IMG/VR virus record: IMGVR_UViG_3300033485_000053
Coordinates: 1-34,521 of that record
DNA: 34,521 nt
Direction: 5' to 3' (one strand)
Origin: a virus
Taxonomy: Duplodnaviria > Caudoviricetes
Both the position numbers and the translations under genes were made by a program. Of the stretch, positions 1 through 9,746 are shown in pieces. Within the stretch, counting starts at the first letter, position 1. Each line of letters opens with the position of its first letter. A model generated the notes under the pieces. It saw nothing but the letters and a program-made list of their open reading frames with translations. It searched no databases and was not told the DNA's origin.

Positions 1-2
1 CA

Positions 3-158
3 GCTACAAACGCCAGCCGGTGCGACCTTTACGCGCCAGGAGAAAAGGTTTGCCTAGATGTGGACGGAGAGAATGGCCCGGCAGATGAAACGAGCGATGA
101 GGAAGCGATTTTGGCAATTTGCGAACATAGCGGAAGAGGCAGGAATGGATGTGTCTAA
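3..158 (+). CDS. Partial hypothetical cassette protein (5' end outside window)
   Basis: Frame 3 is open from the edge (ATNASRCDLY...GRNGCV*). Its TAA lies inside the GTCTAAC core site at 153-159. Confidence 0.5.
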   Translation, partial: ATNASRCDLYAPGEKVCLDVDGENGPADETSDEEAILAICEHSGRGRNGCV

Positions 159-278
159 CGAAAAATTAACCAGCGGTGCGATTGATGCACCTAAACAGGA
201 GAAATAAACATGGACGACACCACTGACGATATAAACAATCCCGCTGGCGCACCGTCTGCGTTGAATGTAGGGTTGGGC
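153..278 (-). repeat. attC-like site 1 (126 bp, long loop)
   Basis: GTCTAAC...TTAAC-CAG-CGGTGCG pairs with CGCACCG-T-CTG-C-GTT-G-AA...GTTGGGC; unpaired T, C and G lie on the + strand right arm. Confidence 0.85.
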
Positions 279-419
279 ATCGGAACCCTATTTGCTCTTT
301 CTGGCTGTTCTGGCGCGACAGGAAACATCACTGCGACCGATCCAACAGAGCGCGGATTATCGTATCTTGCCGCTGCCATTGTCACAGCCGCAGTAATTAA
401 AGCGATATGCAACAAGTGA
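210..419 (+). CDS. Cassette A: small hydrophobic protein, possible lipoprotein
   Basis: AGGAG RBS at 197-201 and ATG 210 are in the attC loop. Lipobox-like LSGC and a hydrophobic C-terminal helix. Confidence 0.6.
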   Translation: MDDTTDDINNPAGAPSALNVGLGIGTLFALSGCSGATGNITATDPTERGLSYLAAAIVTAAVIKAICNK

Positions 420-420
420 T

Positions 421-525
421 GCCCAACGTGGAGGTAAGCCGCAACCAACAGCGGCAACAAAATGATGAATGAAACCACAAACTCAAGCCCGCTGTTGGTT
501 GTCGGACTTGACCGTAAAGTTAGCC
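421..525 (-). repeat. attC-like site 2 (105 bp)
   Basis: GCCCAAC-GTGGA-GGTAAG-CCG-CAACCAACAGCGG pairs with CCGCTGTTGGTTG-T-CGG-A-CTT-G-ACC...GTTAGCC. Confidence 0.9.
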
Positions 526-776
526 CGCCGCCATGCCCATTTTGCGGGAAGCCGGTTGACCTTACCGACGAAGATACGCTCTATCAATCCGGTTCCGGAT
601 GGAAATTCGATGAGGATTTGCAAATGCGAACATATCACCGGATTAACGAAGTGCCAAAGGAGCAATGGTGCTACGGAATGCACTGCCCGGAGCCAGCGGG
701 AGGGTGTGGTGCAGAGATACATGGTGACAGCAAGGATGAGGCGCTAGCGAAGTGGAGCAAGTGGGCTAACGAATGA
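462..776 (+). CDS. Cassette B: Lar-like (restriction alleviation family) zinc-binding protein
   Basis: PCPFCG ... C..GGCGA ... SKDEALAKW pattern typical of Lar-family phage proteins. Starts inside attC 2. Confidence 0.7.
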   Translation: MMNETTNSSPLLVVGLDRKVSPPPCPFCGKPVDLTDEDTLYQSGSGWKFDEDLQMRTYHRINEVPKEQWCYGMHCPEPAGGCGAEIHGDSKDEALAKWSKWANE

Positions 777-828
777 AGCTCAGGGGCGGGCGGCTTCTCG
801 CCCGTCCCGCTGGAGCGACCAGTTAGGC
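764..828 (-). repeat. attC-like site 3 (65 bp)
   Basis: GGCTAAC...GCT-CAG-GGG-CGGGCG pairs with CGCCCG-T-CCC-G-CTG-G-AGC-GACCA-GTTAGGC. Confidence 0.9.
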
Positions 829-856
829 TAGGTTTTTTTGATAAGAGGAGAAAAGC

Positions 857-1123
857 ATGGAATACAAACACGTTTTTACAGGATCGTCAGAAACAGAAGG
901 CGAGCTGCGCACCTTCTTGGGCGCAGCGGAATCACTTGATAGCGGAGTGCCAAGAAAACTGTTTACGAACGACTACTACTGGAAAGTGATGACCGTCGGG
1001 CGTAATGGCGAGAAAGACGCTTATCCGAGGTCGCAGGCCAAGGACGACATGGGCGGATTTTTTGAAGAGCGTGACGGGCTTGTTTATCTGACAGAAAAGG
1101 CGAAGAGCTGCATACATGCCTAA
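857..1123 (+). CDS. Cassette C: hypothetical protein
   Basis: GAGGAG RBS upstream. Stop TAA is inside the GCCTAAC core site. Confidence 0.75.
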   Translation: MEYKHVFTGSSETEGELRTFLGAAESLDSGVPRKLFTNDYYWKVMTVGRNGEKDAYPRSQAKDDMGGFFEERDGLVYLTEKAKSCIHA

Positions 1124-1177
1124 CGCAAAGGTAAGCGGCGGAGCGTAGCGGAGTCCGCCTTGACCGTATGGTTAGGC
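1118..1177 (-). repeat. attC-like site 4 (60 bp)
   Basis: GCCTAAC-GCAAA-GGTAAG-CGG pairs with T-CCG-C-CTT-G-ACC-GTATG-GTTAGGC. Confidence 0.9.
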
Positions 1178-1200
1178 ATTTGACAATAGGAGATGAAAAG

Positions 1201-1377
1201 ATGATAGCAATAGAAACTAGATGCCGTTGCGCAAGATGCAAAAAAATAATAAAAGGAAAGCAAAATATCGCTAATTATGAAAAATATAAGCCATATTGCA
1301 GCTACCACTGCCAACAGTGGCACTGACTGGAAGAAGCGCAAAGGCACATAAAAACATTAGTGCCTAACGTGAAATAG
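1201..1377 (+). pseudogene. Cassette D: small zinc-finger protein with in-frame TGA at 1324-1326
   Basis: AGGAG RBS at 1188-1192. MIAIETRCRCARCKK...KPYCSYHCQQWH*LEEAQRHIKTLVPNVK*; CxxC...PYCSxxC resembles a YacG-like finger. Confidence 0.55.
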
Positions 1378-1470
1378 ATACCCTAAAAACTCCGACTAAT
1401 GCACCTTTATTTTTTGTAGTAGCATGAAAGCAAAGTTAATTTTTTAACTAAAAGCGCAGATTTTTACACC
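1362..1470 (-). repeat. attI-like terminal site, copy 1
   Basis: Core site GCCTAAC without a hairpin partner, then sequence 90/105 identical (ungapped, hand-aligned from the AAC) to 8941-9045. Confidence 0.7.
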
Positions 1471-1698
1471 ATGCCAGAACAAATCTGTGGAACCTGCAAC
1501 CATGCATCATTTGGTAAAACGAATGACTGCACCGCCGCAAGCAATATCTGGGAGCGTGGCAGACACATCGAACCGTGGCTAGTAGAGTGTATGCACAATC
1601 CAGCAAAGTGGGAGCCGATAAATACTCACAAAGACTGGGCATCGAAAGCTGTTAGAATAGAAACTATCAAAAACGCATTGAAGAAAGCCGAAGAATGA
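1471..1698 (+). CDS. Hypothetical Cys-containing phage protein
   Basis: ORF whose stop overlaps the next start (ATGA). No clear RBS; ATG abuts the 105-bp repeat. Confidence 0.55.
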   Translation: MPEQICGTCNHASFGKTNDCTAASNIWERGRHIEPWLVECMHNPAKWEPINTHKDWASKAVRIETIKNALKKAEE

Positions 1699-2114
1699 CA
1701 TCACCATACGCATTTGCAAATAAACAAAAAGCACCTATCCCGTTGGAGCATGATATTCAATGTGCATACTTTGAGTGGGCGCGTAATCCTGCAACGCTGA
1801 AAAAATATCCAAAGATACGCTGGCTGCACGCAATAGCCAATGGCGGGGCGCGTCATGTCGTGGTGGCGGTTAAATTGAAGCGAGAAGGTGTTTTAAAGGG
1901 CATTCTCGATGTTTGTCTGCCATGCTGTAGTGGTGATAAGCATGTTACCTATTCGACGCTCAGAATCGAGTTTAAACGCCCAAAAGAGAAAGAAACGAAA
2001 GAGCAGATCGAATTCGCTGAATTTTGCCGCAACGAAGGGCAGAAATGCGTTGTCTGTTTTGATTCTATCGACGCAATACAGATAACCAAAGATTATTTGG
2101 AGGGTAAATTATGA
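1695..2114 (+). CDS. VRR-NUC family (PD-(D/E)xK) nuclease
   Basis: EHDIQ...HAIANGG.R...LKREGVLKGILD...IEFK....QIEF motifs. Confidence 0.85.
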   Translation: MTSPYAFANKQKAPIPLEHDIQCAYFEWARNPATLKKYPKIRWLHAIANGGARHVVVAVKLKREGVLKGILDVCLPCCSGDKHVTYSTLRIEFKRPKEKETKEQIEFAEFCRNEGQKCVVCFDSIDAIQITKDYLEGKL

Positions 2115-2311
2115 TTGACGATTCTATGATTGCACGATTGCTAGAGCAATGTGATCTGAATGACGCTGTACCTACCGTATATCGTGAAGAGTTAAAACAA
2201 TTCGCCCGTGCTTGCTATGCTGCCGGGCGTGATGATGAAAAATTTGATTCAATTCGTTCTATAGCTAATCTCGCAAAGCAAGGCGAACATCCCCTAATCT
2301 CCAATACCTAG
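2111..2311 (+). CDS. Hypothetical protein
   Basis: ATGA-coupled to the nuclease gene with GAGG RBS. Overlaps the convergent gene at its 3' end. Confidence 0.55.
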   Translation: MIDDSMIARLLEQCDLNDAVPTVYREELKQFARACYAAGRDDEKFDSIRSIANLAKQGEHPLISNT

Positions 2312-2477
2312 TGACCCTCCCGCGAATCTTCACAGGTTGCGGGATTGTTTTATCTGTTATAGCTCTACCTATGAAATATGGCGTATTCTTGATTCCGTAT
2401 ATCTCGACAATCTCTGCACAAGTTAGATATACGCCGTCCTCCCATTTATTCATGCGTGGCGGGATATTCGGAGTCAT
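2265..2477 (-). CDS. AlpA/excisionase-like winged-helix protein
   Basis: YLT.AEI.E.YG...IPQPVKI.GR..R.WRLGDV. ATG 2477 is coupled to the upstream stop. Confidence 0.6.
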   Translation of the reverse strand: MTPNIPPRMNKWEDGVYLTCAEIVEIYGIKNTPYFIGRAITDKTIPQPVKIRGRVTRYWRLGDVRLALRD

Positions 2478-2791
2478 TTCATACGTCCAATTTCTGCTGA
2501 AGCGCAAACTATTGCGCGACGAGTTGCTTCTTCATTTCCGTATCCTATATCTGTTTTTTCTGTAACTGATTCTCCATTGCCGAATTTTACTTCAGTTGCG
2601 TATGCTCGAAAATCTATTCCCAGTCTCAATTTAACTGCCAAACACAAAGCATCACCGTCATCCTCTAACGGGTTCCATATCGCGCCGTTTTCAGTAAAAA
2701 AAGCATTTAATGGATGCTGATTACCGTCTAAGTTTTGTAATATTATCCCTGCTGCCTTCGCCGCTAATTCCAACAATTCTTTATCGTTCAT
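2474..2791 (-). CDS. Conserved phage hypothetical protein
   Basis: MNDKELLELAAKAAG...WNPLEDDGDAL.LAVKL...ATRRAIV pattern; ATGA coupling. Confidence 0.8.
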   Translation of the reverse strand: MNDKELLELAAKAAGIILQNLDGNQHPLNAFFTENGAIWNPLEDDGDALCLAVKLRLGIDFRAYATEVKFGNGESVTEKTDIGYGNEEATRRAIVCASAEIGRMK

Positions 2792-2970
2792 GTCAACCAT
2801 CTCCCAATAATAACCATCCCCGCATAAGCCAATACCCACCATTGCCAGCCTTTTCCTGAATCCATGTCATCAGGCTCATCCAACAATGCGCGATAACCGT
2901 ATGCTTCAGTAAGCGTGCGCGGGAAACGGTTTACGCATAGACCGTATTCTGCGTGTAGATTGTCAGGCAT
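2788..2970 (-). CDS. Small hypothetical membrane protein
   Basis: RFPRTL.EA motif and C-terminal hydrophobic helix; overlaps neighbours in the operon. Confidence 0.6.
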   Translation of the reverse strand: MPDNLHAEYGLCVNRFPRTLTEAYGYRALLDEPDDMDSGKGWQWWVLAYAGMVIIGRWLT

Positions 2971-3229
2971 AAGGATGCTCCGTTTCTTTTTGATTTATGC
3001 TATATTCCGAAATCTGCTCATCTGTCATTTCGTCAGGGCAAAATTCAATCATCAAAGAATCAATCTTTGCTTGTTGAGAATTGCATCTTTTCTCAAACAT
3101 TTCACTTGCTGCAATAGCCATACGCGCCGAGGCTTCAGCATTGCCGAGGTCGTGGCGAAGTGTTGCGATTTCTTTTTTCAATTCAGAGATTTCCTTTTCG
3201 CATTGCTCAACAGCTTGTAATAAGCTCAT
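2963..3229 (-). CDS. Hypothetical coiled-coil phage protein
   Basis: AGGAG RBS; QAKIDSLM.E.CPDEMT.EQ motif recurrent in phage proteins. Confidence 0.75.
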   Translation of the reverse strand: MSLLQAVEQCEKEISELKKEIATLRHDLGNAEASARMAIAASEMFEKRCNSQQAKIDSLMIEFCPDEMTDEQISEYSINQKETEHPYA

Positions 3230-3241
3230 TTTGTAATCTCC

Positions 3242-3526
3242 TTATTCTTGCATAAACATCAAAGAGTCAGGCACAACGAATTCCATCCGTTTATCCTTAT
3301 CCATTGCGCGATATACCAGCAATTTACCGCGAATGCGTTTAAGAAAATCGTTTATTGCTGATTGTGGCGTTGCGCCATTACCATGTGTTGATTCCAAGCA
3401 GGCAGAACCAGCTTTATCCTTGAACTCGCAATTATAGAATGACGCGCTCCAACGGCTTTTCTGGTTAGGGTAATAGATTAAGCGAATTTCGATGTTAAGC
3501 GTATCGCAATAGTCTTGAATGTTCAT
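3242..3526 (-). CDS. Hypothetical protein
   Basis: RBS and ATGA coupling within the leftward operon. Confidence 0.7.
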   Translation of the reverse strand: MNIQDYCDTLNIEIRLIYYPNQKSRWSASFYNCEFKDKAGSACLESTHGNGATPQSAINDFLKRIRGKLLVYRAMDKDKRMEFVVPDSLMFMQE

Positions 3527-3720
3527 TTCATCTCCTTAGTAATATCCAGCGAGGTGCTGGTCAACTGCATATCAAATTCTTCGCAAGCCATTAACTGCCT
3601 AGCCAATACATACAGTGATACAGGGCATCCGGAACGCTCTACCATGCGTCTTGCAGCCTGCCGACCGATACTAGGATATAGACGGGCAGCGCGTAATGCT
3701 ATTTGTGCGTTTGGTGTCAT
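3523..3720 (-). CDS. Hypothetical protein
   Basis: ATGA coupling on both sides. Confidence 0.65.
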   Translation of the reverse strand: MTPNAQIALRAARLYPSIGRQAARRMVERSGCPVSLYVLARQLMACEEFDMQLTSTSLDITKEMK

Positions 3721-4133
3721 TTTTTCCTCATTTCTTCTGCCATAGCAGCAATAGCATCAGCAAGCCATAAACCATCTTCACTTTTGAAAAAAGCGAATTT
3801 ATCCAGTAGTTGTTCAAGAGCATCAGCACTAGCCTGCATACTCGATTCTGCATCGTGCTTGTCGAGCCATTGCTGGATGGATGTGGCAGTGGCGCTGAGT
3901 GCCGCTTCTTGTAAAATAAAAGCGTTCTCGCCCGCCTCCGCGATGCTATCTTGTGCGTCCGGTAAGTGACAATACATATTTGCATATTTTCTGGCGCGCT
4001 CGACTTCATTGATAGCTTCGGCCAGCATCGCGTTGTGTGCAGCAAGCCGCTCGTTCTCGACTTTGAGTTCTGCAACCTCTTCTCGCAGACGCTTGGCTGC
4101 GTCAAGTTCCATTTGCACTAGTAAGCTGGTCAT
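3717..4133 (-). CDS. Hypothetical coiled-coil protein
   Basis: AGGAG RBS and ATGA coupling. Confidence 0.7.
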   Translation of the reverse strand: MTSLLVQMELDAAKRLREEVAELKVENERLAAHNAMLAEAINEVERARKYANMYCHLPDAQDSIAEAGENAFILQEAALSATATSIQQWLDKHDAESSMQASADALEQLLDKFAFFKSEDGLWLADAIAAMAEEMRKK

Positions 4134-4777
4134 TTCTTCTCTCCTATTATTCCGTGGGCGGCTTCTACTGCGCGAGTATAGTCAATCCAATCCTCGGCAT
4201 CCATTTTATAAGAACGCACAGTATTCTGTGCAATTTTTAGTACTACCTCCTCACTCAGCGGCTTCTGCTGTGGGAATGGTTCGGCATACAAAGGCTTTGC
4301 CAGATGCCTAGTGCTGGGCATCAATGATTTTGTATCATAAACAAGATGCCCAGCAACTCCTTGCCAAGCAACTGGCTCCTGCTCCATCAGTTCCTTATCG
4401 CGTTCTTCGCGTCCGGCCTGCTTGCCTCCTTCATAAGCCGCCGCAGTGCTGATTGCGCAGGAATCTACCCCGCGCTGATACTCTGCCGCTTTGATGGCGG
4501 CTAGTTCTTCTTGTCCTTTATCAGACATTTTTAATGTGGGCATAAGATGGCATACTAAAGCCTGCTGCGCTGCTAGTTTATCTTGTGCAATGTATGCCTG
4601 CGTATCTGCCGCAAGTCTCGTGCTAAGCAATTCAGATTCCAGTTCCGTAATCCTCTGTTGGCTTTGTTCGGTGGCCGCTTTCCATACATCGAACTCACTC
4701 CGGCCTGCATCCAGTGCTTTACCTTCGTTTCCCTTCCAAGTCTCAAACGCTTCCCGCATATCAGATTCGTAATTCAT
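4130..4777 (-). CDS. Hypothetical phage protein (starts MNYESD)
   Basis: QEPVAW...PLYA.P motif typical of phage accessory proteins. The longer ORF-track version extends into the IS. Confidence 0.75.
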   Translation of the reverse strand: MNYESDMREAFETWKGNEGKALDAGRSEFDVWKAATEQSQQRITELESELLSTRLAADTQAYIAQDKLAAQQALVCHLMPTLKMSDKGQEELAAIKAAEYQRGVDSCAISTAAAYEGGKQAGREERDKELMEQEPVAWQGVAGHLVYDTKSLMPSTRHLAKPLYAEPFPQQKPLSEEVVLKIAQNTVRSYKMDAEDWIDYTRAVEAAHGIIGEKK

Positions 4778-6085
4778 AAAAGTCTCCGTGATACCCCCGG
4801 CTTTAGCCGTGGGGAGGTAAGGAGACGGTTTTGAAGTTGCATTCCCGTCTCGGTTGACAATCTCACACAAATAATATATCGTGTGTAAATGGATGTCAAG
4901 AAAGCATATAGGTTTAGGTTTTACCCAACGCCAGAGCAAGAGCAAATTCTTGCCAAGACGTTCGGGTGCGCTCGCTTCGCCTATAACCACATGCTGCGGA
5001 TACGCACTGATGCGTGGTACAAAGAACAAAAGCGAGTGGGCTACCACGAGACCTCCGCTTTGTTGACTGAGTTGAAAAAGCAGCCTGAAACAATCTGGAT
5101 GAACGAAGTTTCCAGCGTACCAGTGCAACAGTCTCTGCGACATTTGCAAACCGCATTCGGAAATTTTTTCGCCAAGCGTGCCAAGTATCCGGCCTTCAAA
5201 AGCAAACACGACAAGCAGGCAGCGGAATACACTTCCAGTGCCTTCAAATGGGACGGCAAAGCATTGAAACTGGCAAAGATAGATGCGCCGTTAAATATCC
5301 ACTGGTCGCGCACCTTGCCAAAAGCAGCGAAGCCAACCACAGTCACGGTATCCAAGGACGCAGCAGGACGGTACTTCGCTTCGTTACTTTGCGACGACAC
5401 GGTGATGCCGAAGCCGGAAGCCGCAGGACAGATCGGTATTGACTTAGGGCTTACCCACTTCGCCATACTTTCGACTGGCGAGAAGATTGCAGCACCAAAC
5501 ACGTTCCGCAAGAATGAATCCAAGCTCGCAAAGTTACAGAGGCGACTGGCGAAGAAGCAAAAAGGCTCGGCAAACAGATTCAAGGCCAAGCGCAAAGTAG
5601 CAAGGCTACATGCCAAGACGGCAGATACCCGCAGGGATTTTCTACACAAACTTTCAACCCGGCTGGTCAACGAAAACCAAGTTATCGCCATTGAAAGTCT
5701 CGCCGTCAGCAACATGCAGAAGAACCACTGTTTGGCAAAGTCAATCAGCGATGCTGGCTGGTCAGAGTTTGTCAGGCAGCTCGAATACAAGTCGCTGTGG
5801 TACGGGCGCACCTTGGTCGGCATTGACCGCTGGTATCCATCCAGCAAGCGATGCTCCGACTGTGGGCATACTGTACCAAAAATGCCGTTGAAAGTTCGCG
5901 AGTGGGTATGCCCAGAGTGCGGCAGTATCCATGATCGAGACATCAATGCAGCGCGCAATGTTTTAACCGCTGGGCTTGCGGGGTTAGCCCATGGAGTCGA
6001 AGTAAGTCCTGTCATCATTTGATTGTTGTCGGGCATTTGTCTGTGAAGTGGGAATTCCCTGCCTTTAGGCATGGGGAGCAGTCAA
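4778..6085 (+). mobile_element. IS200/IS605-family element, tnpB only (no tnpA)
   Basis: Left end GATA-CCCCCGGCTTTAGCCGTGGGG (4790-4814). Right end GAAT-TCCCTGCCTTTAGGCATGGGG (6052-6076) ending in TCAA (6082-6085). Inserted 3' of TCAT. Confidence 0.9.
4889..6022 (+). CDS. tnpB: RNA-guided endonuclease TnpB
   Basis: KAYRFRFYPT..Q...L..TFGC.RF N-terminus; RuvC GIDLG, IAIESL and DRDINAARN; CSDC/CPEC zinc finger. Confidence 0.95.
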   Translation: MDVKKAYRFRFYPTPEQEQILAKTFGCARFAYNHMLRIRTDAWYKEQKRVGYHETSALLTELKKQPETIWMNEVSSVPVQQSLRHLQTAFGNFFAKRAKYPAFKSKHDKQAAEYTSSAFKWDGKALKLAKIDAPLNIHWSRTLPKAAKPTTVTVSKDAAGRYFASLLCDDTVMPKPEAAGQIGIDLGLTHFAILSTGEKIAAPNTFRKNESKLAKLQRRLAKKQKGSANRFKAKRKVARLHAKTADTRRDFLHKLSTRLVNENQVIAIESLAVSNMQKNHCLAKSISDAGWSEFVRQLEYKSLWYGRTLVGIDRWYPSSKRCSDCGHTVPKMPLKVREWVCPECGSIHDRDINAARNVLTAGLAGLAHGVEVSPVII

Positions 6086-6105
6086 TTCATATCCTCCGCA
6101 ATAGC
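5950..6105 (+). ncRNA. Predicted TnpB omega/reRNA (5' boundary uncertain), guide from the flank at 6086-~6105
   Basis: Inferred from the established TnpB reRNA layout: tnpB 3' end, right end and 3' flank. Confidence 0.5.
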
Positions 6106-6249
6106 TTTAATAGAAACGGTAATCAACTCACGCTTATCCTGCAACAGCAATATCTGGCTACACGCTACAGCCATTTGCTTATCAATCAGGTCTAAATCGC
6201 TTGCCAATGCTGCGAGTGCAATGGCTTTATCAGATAGGGTAATCATCAT
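6082..6249 (-). CDS. Small hypothetical protein (55 aa)
   Basis: MMITLSDKAIALAALASDL...AEDMN*. ATGA-coupled to the upstream gene; the stop is supplied by the IS end. Confidence 0.65.
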   Translation of the reverse strand: MMITLSDKAIALAALASDLDLIDKQMAVACSQILLLQDKRELITVSIKAIAEDMN

Positions 6250-6674
6250 ATCTCCTTAACAATAACATCATCAGAAGATGCGCCGATAGAACGCATCACA
6301 GTTTCAATCAGCAAATCGCGGCATTCTGGTAGCTTGCCTGCGACATAAACACCGGACTTGCTCGACTTCCATCCTATTGCACCAGCTGCAATATGGCTTA
6401 TATCCACAATCTCGCCATCCTCTACAACATACAATCCGATGATGCAAGACATTGAACTACGGCTTACATGGCGGATGCAGGTGTAAATCTTCCCAGCAAT
6501 TCCATATCCTCTACCCGCCGGAAGAATCAAGCCATCCAAGTCATCAATACACTGCAAACGATATGCTTCGCGTCCTTTAACGAATGGCAGCTTAATCCAA
6601 TCATCAGATGGTGCGCGTCCATCTAGTTGATAGATTCGTCCGTTTGGGGCGCGGTGGTAAGTATATGAAGTCAT
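6246..6674 (-). CDS. Hypothetical protein
   Basis: 142-aa ORF, ATGA-coupled on both sides. Confidence 0.7.
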   Translation of the reverse strand: MTSYTYHRAPNGRIYQLDGRAPSDDWIKLPFVKGREAYRLQCIDDLDGLILPAGRGYGIAGKIYTCIRHVSRSSMSCIIGLYVVEDGEIVDISHIAAGAIGWKSSKSGVYVAGKLPECRDLLIETVMRSIGASSDDVIVKEI

Positions 6675-7318
6675 TTGTTAGCTTTCTTAGCCGCAATGCG
6701 TTGTTGGTGTCCTAATGACAAGCTAAGAACCATGCCTCGCCATTCATTCCACCATTTCAATGCGCCAGAATCCATTTGTGATATTTCATCATCGGTAAAG
6801 TTTTCCCATTGAGCATGAGAAAATAGCTTGCATCCGATTTTGATGTGCATATCCATAATCAGGACGAAATACTTAGTCCCGATGAGTTGGATAGGTTCGT
6901 TTTCTAGCGGGATACCTTCTCCGTATGTAGCCCCGACCAGATTCGCCCCGTCCAGATTCGCCCCGCGCAGATTCGCCCCGCGCAGATACGCCCCGACCAG
7001 ATACGCCCCGCGCAGATACGCCCCGACCAGATACGCCCCGTCCAGATTCGCCCCGACCAGATACGCCCCGTCCAGATTCGCCCCGACCAGATTCGCCCCG
7101 TCCAGATTCGCCCCGTCCAGATTCGCCCCGACCAGATTCGCCCCGTCCAGATTCGCCCCGCGCAGATTCGCCCCGCGCAGATACGCCCCGACCAGATTCG
7201 CCCCGCGCAGATTCGCCCCAGCACTAAAAGCGGCTTCTACGCATATTTTCATACTTGCGCATTCAAGCGAAAAGATTACAGAGCCAGTAAAGCGGTTTTT
7301 GATTTCAAATAAAGACAT
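6671..7318 (-). CDS. Pentapeptide-repeat protein
   Basis: 19 x GA(N/Y)L(R/V/D), framed by FEIKNRFTG and IKIGC...W..F domains. GGAG 7 nt before ATG 7318. Confidence 0.9.
   Translation of the reverse strand: MSLFEIKNRFTGSVIFSLECASMKICVEAAFSAGANLRGANLVGAYLRGANLRGANLDGANLVGANLDGANLDGANLVGANLDGAYLVGANLDGAYLVGAYLRGAYLVGAYLRGANLRGANLDGANLVGATYGEGIPLENEPIQLIGTKYFVLIMDMHIKIGCKLFSHAQWENFTDDEISQMDSGALKWWNEWRGMVLSLSLGHQQRIAAKKANK
6930..7219. repeat. 15-bp coding tandem repeat, ~19 copies
   Basis: GCCCCG(AC/TC/CG)CAGAT(T/A)C units. Confidence 0.95.
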
Positions 7319-7640
7319 TTTCATTCTCCAAAGTTAAGTTAGTAACGAGTGCCGCGATGTACGGTTACAACAGATTCTGTAGTTTCGCGCAGAATCCGAG
7401 CCGCAGACTTGATGCGTTTCCAATAAGCGCATCGTTTGACGCGCCGAAGTGTGCGCCAGTGGGTAAGTGTGGTGTGAGTGATGCTCATGGCTGCGCGTAT
7501 CATGCTGTCACCTCATTATGTTGTATTGCTGTTGACCAAAGCTCTATTTGTGTCATTGGAACGCCGACGAACTGAGCGCGCAGACGAGCAAAGGTAAGGG
7601 AGAATTCTGCTAGTTCTAGGAAATATGTGCGGGTCATGGC

Positions 7641-7910
7641 TTATTTACCAAGCCATTCTTGCGATTCTTTTTTCATGCCGTCAAGATTTCTAGCAAGCAT
7701 CGCGGCAAAACTGACGAAATAACCAGATTGTGTATTTGTGCTTGCCATATCGGCAGCCCAACGCATATTTTTAGAACGGAGCTGTTGTTCAGCTTGTTCT
7801 GGTGTGAATTTAAGCTCTAAAAGCAACGCGGCGCAGTTTATCCATTGTGAACCATATCTGCTTGAGCTAAATGCATCAGATGTTTTTTTTGCTAATTGTT
7901 TTGCATTCAT
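7641..7910 (-). CDS. Hypothetical protein, first gene of the leftward operon
   Basis: AAGGAG RBS, downstream of the leftward promoter. Confidence 0.75.
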   Translation of the reverse strand: MNAKQLAKKTSDAFSSSRYGSQWINCAALLLELKFTPEQAEQQLRSKNMRWAADMASTNTQSGYFVSFAAMLARNLDGMKKESQEWLGK

Positions 7911-8040
7911 TTTGTAAATCTCCTTTAAGTGTTTAGGTCTATTAGCTGACCGATTAGCTTTGTTGGAAAGGCTGCTAGTTCCTCATTTACCCTCATTTAA
8001 CAGCGAGCCTCACTATCGCCGCACCTAACCAACAGTTCGC

Positions 8041-8069
8041 ATACTATAGATACGATTCAACCTTGTCAA
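8041..8069 (-). promoter_or_regulatory. Sigma70-type leftward promoter
   Basis: TTGACA-17 bp-TAGTAT on the minus strand. Confidence 0.7.
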
Positions 8070-8115
8070 GCATTTTGTGCGCGCAGATTAAAAATATATG
8101 TGATGCGGAAATATG

Positions 8116-8144
8116 TTTACTTTTTGGAGTTGTGCGCGTACAAT
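8116..8144 (+). promoter_or_regulatory. Sigma70-type rightward promoter reading into array 2
   Basis: TTTACT-17 bp-TACAAT immediately before the attC half-site. Confidence 0.55.
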
Positions 8145-8168
8145 TCAGTCTTGAATGCCGTGTTAGGC
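8145..8168 (-). repeat. attC half-site (one arm only)
   Basis: T-CAG-T-CTT-G-AAT-GCCGT-GTTAGGC has the same spacing as the other right arms. No complementary arm seen upstream. Confidence 0.65.
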
Positions 8169-8195
8169 ATTTTAACAACGAAGCGGAGTAAGAAA

Positions 8196-8420
8196 ATGAA
8201 AAAGCCATACCCATCACTGTGCAAAGACTGCAAACACAGCAAGACAGAAGAACGTAGCGAGTGGAACTTGAGATGTCACCATCCAGTTGTAAATGCAAAA
8301 GACCCGTGGGCGCTTGCAAGCATCAATGCGGGTGGAAGTAATTGCTCCACCGTGCGAGAAAAGCACTGGCCTGCGGCTTGTGGAATGCGCGGCGCACTTT
8401 GGGATGGGAAGAGTGTCTAA
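8196..8420 (+). CDS. Cassette E: Cys-rich hypothetical protein
   Basis: GGAG RBS at 8185-8188; LCKDCKH...C.HP...C...R......CG..G.LW; TAA inside GTCTAAC. Confidence 0.75.
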   Translation: MKKPYPSLCKDCKHSKTEERSEWNLRCHHPVVNAKDPWALASINAGGSNCSTVREKHWPAACGMRGALWDGKSV

Positions 8421-8477
8421 CGCAAAGTTAACCGGCTCCGCGCTTTTGCGGAGTCCGGGTTGAACGGCGGGTTAGCC
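8415..8477 (-). repeat. attC-like site 5 (63 bp)
   Basis: GTCTAAC-GCAAA-GTT-AAC-CGG-CTCCGC pairs with GCGGAG-T-CCG-G-GTT-G-AAC-GGCGG-GTTAGCC. Confidence 0.9.
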
Positions 8478-8705
8478 ACTACGCCAAGAGTGCTAGGGCA
8501 TTCCAGAGATTGCAGAACGCAACAGTGGATGATTACATGCCCCAAATGCGCCAAGCAATTCGAGCCGCAAACAACGCGACTTTCATGGCAGTCAATGGAT
8601 TGTCCGAAGTGCGGAACATCTTTGATCGCCGATTACAATGCGGAGCCACCAACTGTGAGGGTGGCTAACGTGGAGTTGAGCGGGCGCGCTGAGAACGCAA
8701 TTTAA
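8460..8705 (+). CDS. Cassette F: zinc-ribbon protein
   Basis: Two CPKC motifs. Probable TTG start with GGAG (8450-8453) inside the attC arm. Confidence 0.65.
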   Translation: MNGGLATTPRVLGHSRDCRTQQWMITCPKCAKQFEPQTTRLSWQSMDCPKCGTSLIADYNAEPPTVRVANVELSGRAENAI

Positions 8706-8747
8706 TCAACCACGCTTCGGGCGCTCCGCTCGAACGGAAAGTTAGGA
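8663..8747 (-). repeat. attC-like site 6 (85 bp)
   Basis: GGCTAAC-GTGGA-GTT-GAG-CGG-GCGC pairs with GCGC-T-CCG-CTC-G-AAC-GGAAA-GTTAGGA. Confidence 0.9.
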
Positions 8748-8754
8748 ACTTACC

Positions 8755-8952
8755 ATGAAACAGAAAAAGATAGAACTTCTTGTAACCTATAAATTTAAGG
8801 TTAGTTATGAGCACGCAGACCACCTACGAGAGATAAAAAAAGAACTCAAGAAACACCCGATAACCAACATGGATGGAGCAGGAGTAGCAAGCGATGGGGT
8901 TGTCTATGGATACTCATGCAAACTTATTAAGGCGTTTCCTAACGTGAAATAG
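8755..8952 (+). CDS. Cassette G: hypothetical protein
   Basis: The AGGA of the core site could act as RBS. Ends PNVK* in the attI-like site, like cassette D. Confidence 0.7.
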   Translation: MKQKKIELLVTYKFKVSYEHADHLREIKKELKKHPITNMDGAGVASDGVVYGYSCKLIKAFPNVK

Positions 8953-9045
8953 GCACCCTAAAAACCCCAACAAATACACCATAATTTTTTTTAGCCACAT
9001 GAAAATAAAGTTAAGTTTTTAACTAAAAGCGCAGATTTTTACACC
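8937..9045 (-). repeat. attI-like terminal site, copy 2
   Basis: Direct repeat of 1362-1470; the last 30 bp are identical. Confidence 0.7.
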
Positions 9046-9058
9046 AAAAGGAACTGAT

Positions 9059-9283
9059 ATGGAAGAGAAGACACCAAAGAAACGCGGACGCAAGACAATC
9101 TCGAAGGATGGCGCAAAGATGCTTAACCGTAACTTCAGGACTACGGATGCAGAATGGGAATCGTGCCTATTGTTTGGCGGCGGAAAGTGGATTAGATCGC
9201 AGATTCATCGGAAGATTAGGCTGGATGCTCAGAAAAAGGTTGATGAAATGTGCGCACCAGTTTTGGCAGAAACGGAGAAATAA
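9059..9283 (+). CDS. Small putative DNA-binding protein (ribbon-helix-helix-like)
   Basis: KKRGRK basic N-terminus; RNFRTTDAEW...GG.KWIR; AAGGA RBS. Confidence 0.6.
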   Translation: MEEKTPKKRGRKTISKDGAKMLNRNFRTTDAEWESCLLFGGGKWIRSQIHRKIRLDAQKKVDEMCAPVLAETEK

Positions 9284-9284
9284 C

Positions 9285-9446
9285 ATGGAACAGAAATTAA
9301 AAATAACGCGTAATAAAATAAAAGAAAAGCTACAGGAAGGACTAGATGTGAACAACTGGTCTATTGTTGGAACAAGAGGATCAAACGCAGCATTTTTGAA
9401 GCTTCTTATTGAATATCTTAAGAGCAAAGGAATTGAAGTGCATTGA
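9285..9446 (+). CDS. Hypothetical protein
   Basis: GGAG RBS; follows the previous stop directly. Confidence 0.6.
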   Translation: MEQKLKITRNKIKEKLQEGLDVNNWSIVGTRGSNAAFLKLLIEYLKSKGIEVH

Positions 9447-9452
9447 CAGTAG

Positions 9453-9746
9453 ATGACATCAATCGTGGATAATATAGTTGACCTGCACGCAGCAAGAAAA
9501 GAGCGCGAGCCGCACAGCACAGGTGAAGCTAGATGCTTGTCTTGTAACCACGAATGGATAGCGGTAGCACCTACTGGCACAGTTTGGCTAGAATGTCCTG
9601 AATGCTCGATTGAAAAAGGCAGATTCGTCGCGCATCACGAAAGAAGTGGCGACCATTGGGAATGTGATTGTGGGTGTGACTTGTTCTACATAACACCGGA
9701 CGGAATGTATTGTCCTAATTGCGGAGATTGGCAGCATGGATTCTGA
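9453..9746 (+). CDS. Zinc-binding hypothetical protein
   Basis: CLSC, CPEC, CDCG and CPNC motifs. Confidence 0.75.
   Translation: MTSIVDNIVDLHAARKEREPHSTGEARCLSCNHEWIAVAPTGTVWLECPECSIEKGRFVAHHERSGDHWECDCGCDLFYITPDGMYCPNCGDWQHGF

Follow-up and report, generated by a model that had tools for sequence, protein, structure and literature searches.

Gene content and layout of the two arrays

The 34,521 bases analyzed here (hereafter, the window) are the entire virus record IMGVR_UViG_3300033485_000053, which is linear and about 83% complete. The encoded set includes terminase, portal, scaffold, capsid, head-closure and ejection proteins and an endolysin, and points to a tailed, P22-like particle. 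Small genes separated by attC hairpins, the recombination sites of integron cassettes, form two rows in the window, and each row ends in an attI-like site. The features are listed below, with crossover positions (AA|C) on the plus strand.

Array 1
3-158, plus strand: cassette gene truncated at the contig end, only its 3' part being present; its stop TAA falls within R' of site 1; no family match
153-278, minus strand (top; the bottom strand is plus): attC site 1; crossover 158/159; the long loop holds the ribosome-binding site and ATG of the next gene
210-419, plus strand: cassette gene, 69 aa, beginning inside attC site 1; no family match
421-525, minus strand: attC site 2 (G16, A20, T24); crossover 426/427; the loop holds the ATG of the next gene
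462-776, plus strand: Lar-like cassette gene (restriction-alleviation family), 104 aa; attC site 2 encodes its N-terminus, and the spacer of attC site 3 holds its stop
764-828, minus strand: attC site 3, with a 7-nt spacer; crossover 769/770; covariance model E 1e-9
857-1123, plus strand: cassette gene, 88 aa, conserved family, function not assigned; stop TAA in R' of attC site 4
1118-1177, minus strand: attC site 4; crossover 1123/1124; covariance model E 8e-12
1201-1379, plus strand: last cassette gene of the array, small Cys-rich protein; internal TGA at 1324-1326
1362-1406, minus strand: attI-like site A; crossover 1367/1368; opens the 109-bp repeat 1363-1471; 83% over 48 bp to locus L198

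Array 2
8116-8144, plus strand: sigma-70-like promoter match (9/12), aiming into the array from its far end
8145-8168, minus strand: truncated attC, L''/R'' arm only; two contigs of metagenome run X4 have the same arm and a full left arm
8196-8420, plus strand: cassette gene, 74 aa; homologs at 52-57%
8415-8477, minus strand: attC site 5; crossover 8420/8421; covariance model E 2e-12
8460-8705, plus strand: zinc-ribbon-like cassette gene that may start at TTG 8460 or at ATG 8529 and whose frame enters attC site 6
8663-8747, minus strand: attC site 6 (G16, T23); crossover 8668/8669; covariance model E 6e-10
8755-8952, plus strand: last cassette gene of the array, 65 aa; its stop comes from attI
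8937-8980, minus strand: attI-like site B; crossover 8942/8943; opens the repeat copy 8938-9046, 86% to copy A

Past its internal TGA, the frame of 1201-1379 runs open to a stop inside attI, as does the intact last gene of array 2.

Anatomy and detection of the attC sites

A preliminary description of this DNA, made from the letters alone, had proposed six attC hairpins, and all of them are present at the positions given above for sites 1 to 6. The architecture claimed for them (core pair, L stem and unpaired bases) was verified in the six sites. Each has R' and R'' boxes with a YAAC...GTTR core pair and an L stem made of three perfectly paired triplets (9 bp). Numbered from the 3' end of the plus strand, the unpaired bases are G16 (6/6 sites), a base at 20 (5/6) and either T24 (five sites) or T23 (one). 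The spacers, described as about 5-7 nt long, measure 5 nt in 11 of 12 cases, the remaining one being the 7-nt spacer of site 3. At all six sites the plus strand is purine-rich and folds lower than the minus strand, by a small margin of 0.3-2.7 kcal/mol. Fold z-scores were -3.5 for site 2 and -3.4 for site 4, and the minimum-energy structure of site 1 is not attC-like because its loop is long.

The final version of our scanner found exactly these six sites in 34.5 kb and none in 40 Markov shuffles, with the proviso that its rules were set after inspecting the sites and that earlier versions detected two and four. A covariance model, the check suggested in the preliminary description, was built from 43 bacterial attC top strands; it matched four of the six sites (E 2e-12 to 1e-9), all on the minus strand, and nothing else, although it is not fully independent because its training sites came from a window-derived pattern. 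The two long-loop sites, 105 and 126 nt in length, escape the model because they are longer than its 66 positions. No match was obtained in an Rfam search, and a sequence-only model built from the six sites was discarded as circular.

The single half-site mentioned in the preliminary description turned out to be one truncated attC (8145-8168) plus the two attI-like sites; no complete hairpin was found when 8020-8169 was folded. With four and two attC sites on the same strand, at least two of them within 4 kb, and no intI gene nearby, the arrays are by definition clusters of attC sites lacking integron integrases (CALINs), and not a complete integron.

Cassette genes lie on the bottom strand of attC

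In bacterial integrons, cassette genes lie on the top strand of attC and are read from the Pc promoter beside attI. The strand of the sites in the window was assigned on features that Nivina et al. (2016, PMC5027507) attribute to the attC bottom strand, namely unpaired G16 and T23/24, purine richness and higher stability; according to the same source, the AAC of R' is cleaved directly before its C. Since the unpaired bases, the purine richness and the stability all fall on the plus strand, the latter is the recombining bottom strand. The cassette genes are on this very strand. Their open reading frames (ORFs) have ribosome-binding sites and, in the three cases tested, homolog families that amount to 27 members for the 88-aa protein, 5 for the 65-aa protein and 124 for the Lar-like protein, the query included. 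Seven antisense ORFs tested in parallel gave no credible match, with one sub-threshold Pfam match.

Hence, the cassette genes of the window are inverted relative to bacterial cassettes: genes sit on the bottom strand instead of the top strand, they face attI, and each cassette is a mirror image in which attC comes first and the gene follows. As units of attC plus the downstream plus-strand gene, the cassettes span 159-426, 427-769, 770-1123 and 1124-1367 in array 1, and 8421-8668 and 8669-8942 in array 2. Two genes begin within the loop of their own hairpin, and the stops of several are found in R' or slightly farther on, a few codons inside the following site. The G|TT crossover of the preliminary description did not hold, as the GTT of the coding strand belongs to R''; because the coding strand is the bottom strand, crossover falls at the left-end AA|C, and this is where relatives switch.

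Both arrays end in a host-type attI

A 109-bp repeat (1363-1471 and 8938-9046, 86% identical) starts at YAA|C directly after the last gene of each array. Nineteen of its first 22 bases match a sequence located 151 bp before a full intI gene in a betaproteobacterial metagenome-assembled genome (MAG). Two further MAGs, one of Gallionella and one of Nitrosomonadales, have this core as well, there at 158 bp ahead of a full intI. Homology and position thus argue that the head of each array is an attI. They are integron-like cassette arrays, as the preliminary description had claimed, but they bear an attI and are not bare attC clusters.

The attI motif was detected in 65 of 201 genomes belonging to the family of the Gallionella MAG, which we take to be Gallionellaceae, against 1 for a reversed control. 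When the DNA about 150 bp downstream of 30 fetched copies was inspected, 6 had a long intI match, 4 had a remnant and 20 had none. Solo attI docks are therefore common in the Gallionella family, and arrays served in trans already exist there. Many genomes of the family (L321-L349) carry attI copies without intI, some of them with canonical arrays, and the motif matches amount to at most 4 per genome.

About 40 bp into the window repeat, its homology to the host attI ceases, and no intI promoter region remains. What follows in the repeat (1407-1471 and 8981-9046) is AT-rich, is not found in host attI sites and includes a small inverted repeat; its end lies immediately ahead of a start codon. 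Fusion of a phage promoter or operator to attI may account for this distal part. Host-type sequences are found elsewhere in the arrays: attC site 5 is 96.6% identical, across 59 nt, to one of the sites in the canonical array of a Gallionella MAG, and the best homolog of the Lar-like protein (82%) is in a Ca. Ferrigenium altingense MAG. A betaproteobacterium of the iron-oxidizing Gallionella family appears to be the host. Portal relatives detected in 2 of the 201 family genomes are distant (39% and 30%) and were not accepted as proof of host. A search for the exact attI pattern gave one match in IMG/VR, discarded as a chance match inside a gene, and 23 in metagenomes, of which 2 are the window's own record, about 8 are attI-like by context and the others look like chance. 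Two short elements that start like the window attI, each with a gene directly after it, were also seen inside an inverted phage array (L109 and L136).

Cassettes switch at AA|C in related phages

Eight pairs of viral loci switch at AA|C: five keep the site and the downstream gene, three keep the upstream gene only, and none keeps the upstream gene and the site. These eight pairs derive from about five independent cassettes, and a looser count gave 7 and 2. One pair (L101/L110) shares a whole cassette at 100% identity with new neighbors on both sides. In the bacterial control, three pairs retained the upstream DNA and the site; the leaders of their arrays are conserved. Among phage-like contigs, the members of two pairs (L292/L306 and L302/L303) have the window-type attI and its downstream DNA in common, and their upstream DNA differs from AA|C on.

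Four metagenome runs (X1-X4) were used for comparison of reads and contigs. For 857-1123 and 8460-8705, the similarity of homologs from other runs to the window breaks off 2-3 nt past AA|C (at 1126 and 8671); copies of the latter gene at 87% and 99% were found in X2 and X3, and attC site 3 is a high-depth repeat with many different flanks in X2 and X4. All homologs of the 65-aa protein have Pro-Asn near the C-terminus and then a tail that differs from one to the next, with the change placed exactly after the Pro-Asn of the core, and one of these tails is the translation of an attC-5-type site. Cassette-precise change, which the preliminary description had proposed to look for in related phages, is therefore observed in pairs of other phages and not among close relatives of the window phage: as no such relative was found, gain or loss within its own lineage is not seen. 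Eighty loci with terminase relatives (61-77%) yielded none with comparable arrays under the strict scanner, and blastn of array 1 against 50,697 GenBank phages gave no match. In X1, a joint between 523 and 1121 was too weak (21 nt on one side) to be accepted as an excision.

Polarity and cargo in a wider survey

A pattern scan yielded 54 viral loci, and 138 bacterial loci with the same pattern were fetched out of about 690 estimated. Judged by ORF ends, the 121 viral sites were divided into 65 inverted, 20 canonical and 36 unclear, and the 258 bacterial sites into 27, 194 and 37. Amino-acid composition gave 39 inverted and 1 canonical viral loci versus 9 inverted, 68 canonical and 6 ties in bacteria, and the flanks gave 152 inverted, 4 canonical and 71 unclear in viruses versus 58, 182 and 255 in bacteria; these strand calls come from a simple heuristic on ORFs, which got L146 wrong, and loci that overlap do not count as independent. 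Altogether, mirror polarity is general in phages. On a Flavobacteriales-labelled MAG contig, possibly misbinned (L142-L144 and L175-L176), the attC sites of a long array are nearly identical and occur in both orientations, with conserved leaders.

The cargo looks phage-born. In 20 phage intI loci, matches to PHROG families were found for 10 of 29 bottom-strand ORFs versus none of 29 top-strand ORFs, and the named products include DNA methyltransferases, a Mom-like protein and PAPS reductase. Homologs of the 8196-8420 gene are ordinary phage genes without attC (2/2 loci), and the Lar-like family occurs both with and without hairpin-encoded ends. The Lar-like gene itself has weak matches to PHROG 599 and PF14354, the latter found in many of its 124 homologs, and its three weak loci in IMG/VR lack attC. 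The 88-aa family has 26 homologs at 66-89% besides the protein itself, no locus in IMG/VR and none in the 401 + 5 bacterial genomes searched. The ESM Atlas gave only leads under 0.9.

Integrases in the window and in other phages

No tyrosine recombinase was found in the window, as the preliminary description had stated: PF00589 had no match, the best tblastn hit with IntI had an E of 2.7, and no IntI remnant was detected. Unrelated genes follow both attI sites, where a complete integron has intI, and about 17% of the genome is missing. An IntI above the TIGR02249 cut-off is encoded in 3 of 50 viral records with arrays. These three loci, L278 (G016), L279 (G049) and L280 (G030), are complete phage integrons with an inverted array, attI and a full IntI on one strand; in two of the three records an excisionase-like gene and a phage integrase come next. 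IntI relatives are encoded by 201 loci in IMG/VR. Among 81 such phage loci examined, 30 had attC sites according to the scanner (29 inverted, 1 unclear) and none had a Gallionella-type attI within 330 nt upstream of intI. GenBank virus Rctr41k (L355; KX853513.1, 4680-5678) encodes an IntI-like protein, 46.5% identical to a host IntI and annotated as xerD, among small genes and methyltransferases; the scanner found no attC in its neighborhood.

A model for cassette traffic and its alternatives

Our favored interpretation, which we consider probable, is that a tailed phage carries two integron-type arrays, with genes backwards to attC and a host-type attI at the end of each, and that a host IntI loads and reshuffles them. 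Shuffling by IntI in trans, as the preliminary description supposed, is thus the best reading, with the enzyme presumably supplied by the host. IntI would fold the plus (bottom) strand and cut at AA|C during infection, and new cassettes would enter at attI, the downstream end of the row. Because the genes face attI, transcription would enter the row at its other end, from a phage promoter; entry of cassettes at attI and reading from the far end would make the newest cassette the last, the reverse of bacterial logic. The hairpin loop can supply the ribosome-binding site and the start codon of a gene, and the gene terminates with help of the next site, which adds either the stop or a short tail at the C-terminus. 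If a canonical cassette of the host entered a phage array, it would lie antisense.

Several observations weigh against this interpretation. No close relative of the window phage was found, and no excision joint in X1, the source-like run. Decay is visible in the truncated attC at 8145 and in the internal stop at 1324. In partial sequences, record 14 of X2 and record 20 of X3 match the 8421-8668 gene and exit the window inside attC site 5 (at 8469 and 8462), and two X4 contigs join the truncated 8150-8190 arm to another gene; genes and hairpins are therefore sometimes re-paired. The promoter match at 8116-8144 is at chance level (14 sites found vs 13.6 expected), a protein named from Methylobacter is among the members of one cluster in the 88-aa family, the survey relies on the heuristic calls described above, and an incomplete, linear record leaves room for an integrase elsewhere.

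The same signs of decay, together with the lack of an excision joint in X1 and the loss of host homology and intI promoter region beyond about 40 bp of attI, would suit arrays that are relics: IntI would have loaded them in an ancestor or an earlier host, and they would now be only inherited and decaying. We regard this as unlikely: the six sites retain perfect 9-bp stems and their unpaired bases, both attI cores are intact, and cassettes 99-100% identical occur in differing neighborhoods of other contigs.

An integrase of the phage itself might be encoded in the missing part of the genome, as array 1 runs off the contig end and other phages do carry IntI. This explanation seems improbable, however, since in such phages intI directly follows attI, whereas unrelated genes follow both attI sites of the window, none of the 81 loci examined has the Gallionella-type attI within 330 nt upstream, and 8 of 10 records that are at least 90% complete and contain such arrays lack any tyrosine-recombinase match.

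That the hairpins are mainly RNA structures or homologous-recombination repeats, with IntI playing no role in the phage, would fit the start codons in the loops and the copies that switch within a hairpin and not at AA|C. It is very hard to reconcile with AA|C switches between otherwise unrelated sites, with an attI at the right end of both rows and with conserved unpaired G and T, the features that IntI recognizes.

Finally, host chromosomal integron DNA, misassembled or recently picked up, can be practically dismissed despite the closeness of attC site 5 and attI to Gallionella-family sequences and a 31-nt stretch shared by the repeat copies where contigs break: host arrays have the opposite gene polarity, the cargo has phage homologs without attC, and in X1, the wetland metagenome with the closest read match, depth is even (about 8-11) with zero differences across the arrays and adjoining phage genes, and contigs 1-523, 494-1470, 1442-3097 and 8426-9045 match the window identically.

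Loading and reshuffling by a host IntI, our favored interpretation, admits an attractive but tentative extension. In phages of freshwater and wetland Proteobacteria, ordinary genes might become mirror cassettes that are traded through host or phage IntI, with polarity acting as a firewall because host defense cassettes would be silent in a phage array and phage counter-defense cassettes silent in a host array. A recent study reportedly finds anti-phage systems stocked in host arrays (10.1101/2024.07.02.601686), which suggests that a separate polarity could pay; IntI is linked to the SOS response in many bacteria (PMC8946536). If the extension is true, families with and without attC, such as the Lar-like and 8196 families, record how cassettes are made.

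Neighboring elements

Between the arrays, 4791-6078 is an IS200/IS605-type element flanked by terminal hairpins; its lone gene (ORF 4889-6022, plus strand) encodes TnpB (PF01385, PF07282), and the insertion opposes the leftward phage operon. The minus-strand gene at 6671-7324 encodes a pentapeptide-repeat protein and contains a 15-bp unit repeated about 19 times; an X3 contig skips this whole gene (joint 6676-7352). Contigs of X1 and X3 also skip single small genes without attC in 2268-3720 and 9266-9474 (joints 2466-2787, 9266-9474 and 9290-9447). Ordinary gene gain and loss therefore also acts on the region.

Comparison with known systems

Cassettes in tailed phages, of which the preliminary description knew no characterized case, are not new. 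Clusters of attC sites without integrase were published by Qi et al. (2023, PMC9892861), who report 17 CALINs among 10,705 phage genomes and call the association infrequent; IntI1 recombined 5 of 6 phage attC sites tested, with bottom-strand preference, and methyltransferases were among the cargo. Like those of the window, these attC clusters lack intI and lie in phage genomes, virulent phages among them. The window differs by its bottom-strand genes, solo attI docks and cassette-precise exchange between phages, on which the text of that paper makes no remark. When two of those phages were scanned, TJE1 proved canonical and ctTUS972 (MW202573) inverted like the window, again without remark in the text. 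Our literature search, which had most subscription papers outside its scope, found no account of phage cassettes with inverted polarity or of host-type attI sites that serve as solo docks.

The reverse integrons of Treponema (Cury 2016, PMC4889954; 10.1101/2020.05.09.085589) resemble the IntI-bearing phages in that intI and genes are co-oriented. In Treponema, however, it is intI that has been turned around, and genes have their stop in R'', whereas in the phages intI, attI and attC are arranged as usual, the genes are flipped and stops lie in R' or beyond. The window arrays are thus not of this type: their stops fall in R' or in the next site, and intI of the phage relatives is on the usual bottom-strand side.

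The orientation of genes relative to attC is usually treated as fixed, since strand selectivity puts them under Pc. A large phage pool of opposite polarity would mean that IntI also drives the turnover of phage accessory genes, and IntI exchange would explain some of the mosaicism of phages by a precise mechanism; genes available in both forms, as a cassette and otherwise, bear on how cassettes arise. The closest counterparts are the sedentary chromosomal integrons of the Gallionella family, which share with the window the attI core plus about 20 bp, the attC family, the AA|C crossover and arrays with a solo attI. Host genes lie on the top strand and point away from attI, whereas the phage genes lie on the bottom strand and point towards it. 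Mirror polarity and two host-type attI docks are what is new here with respect to published CALINs.

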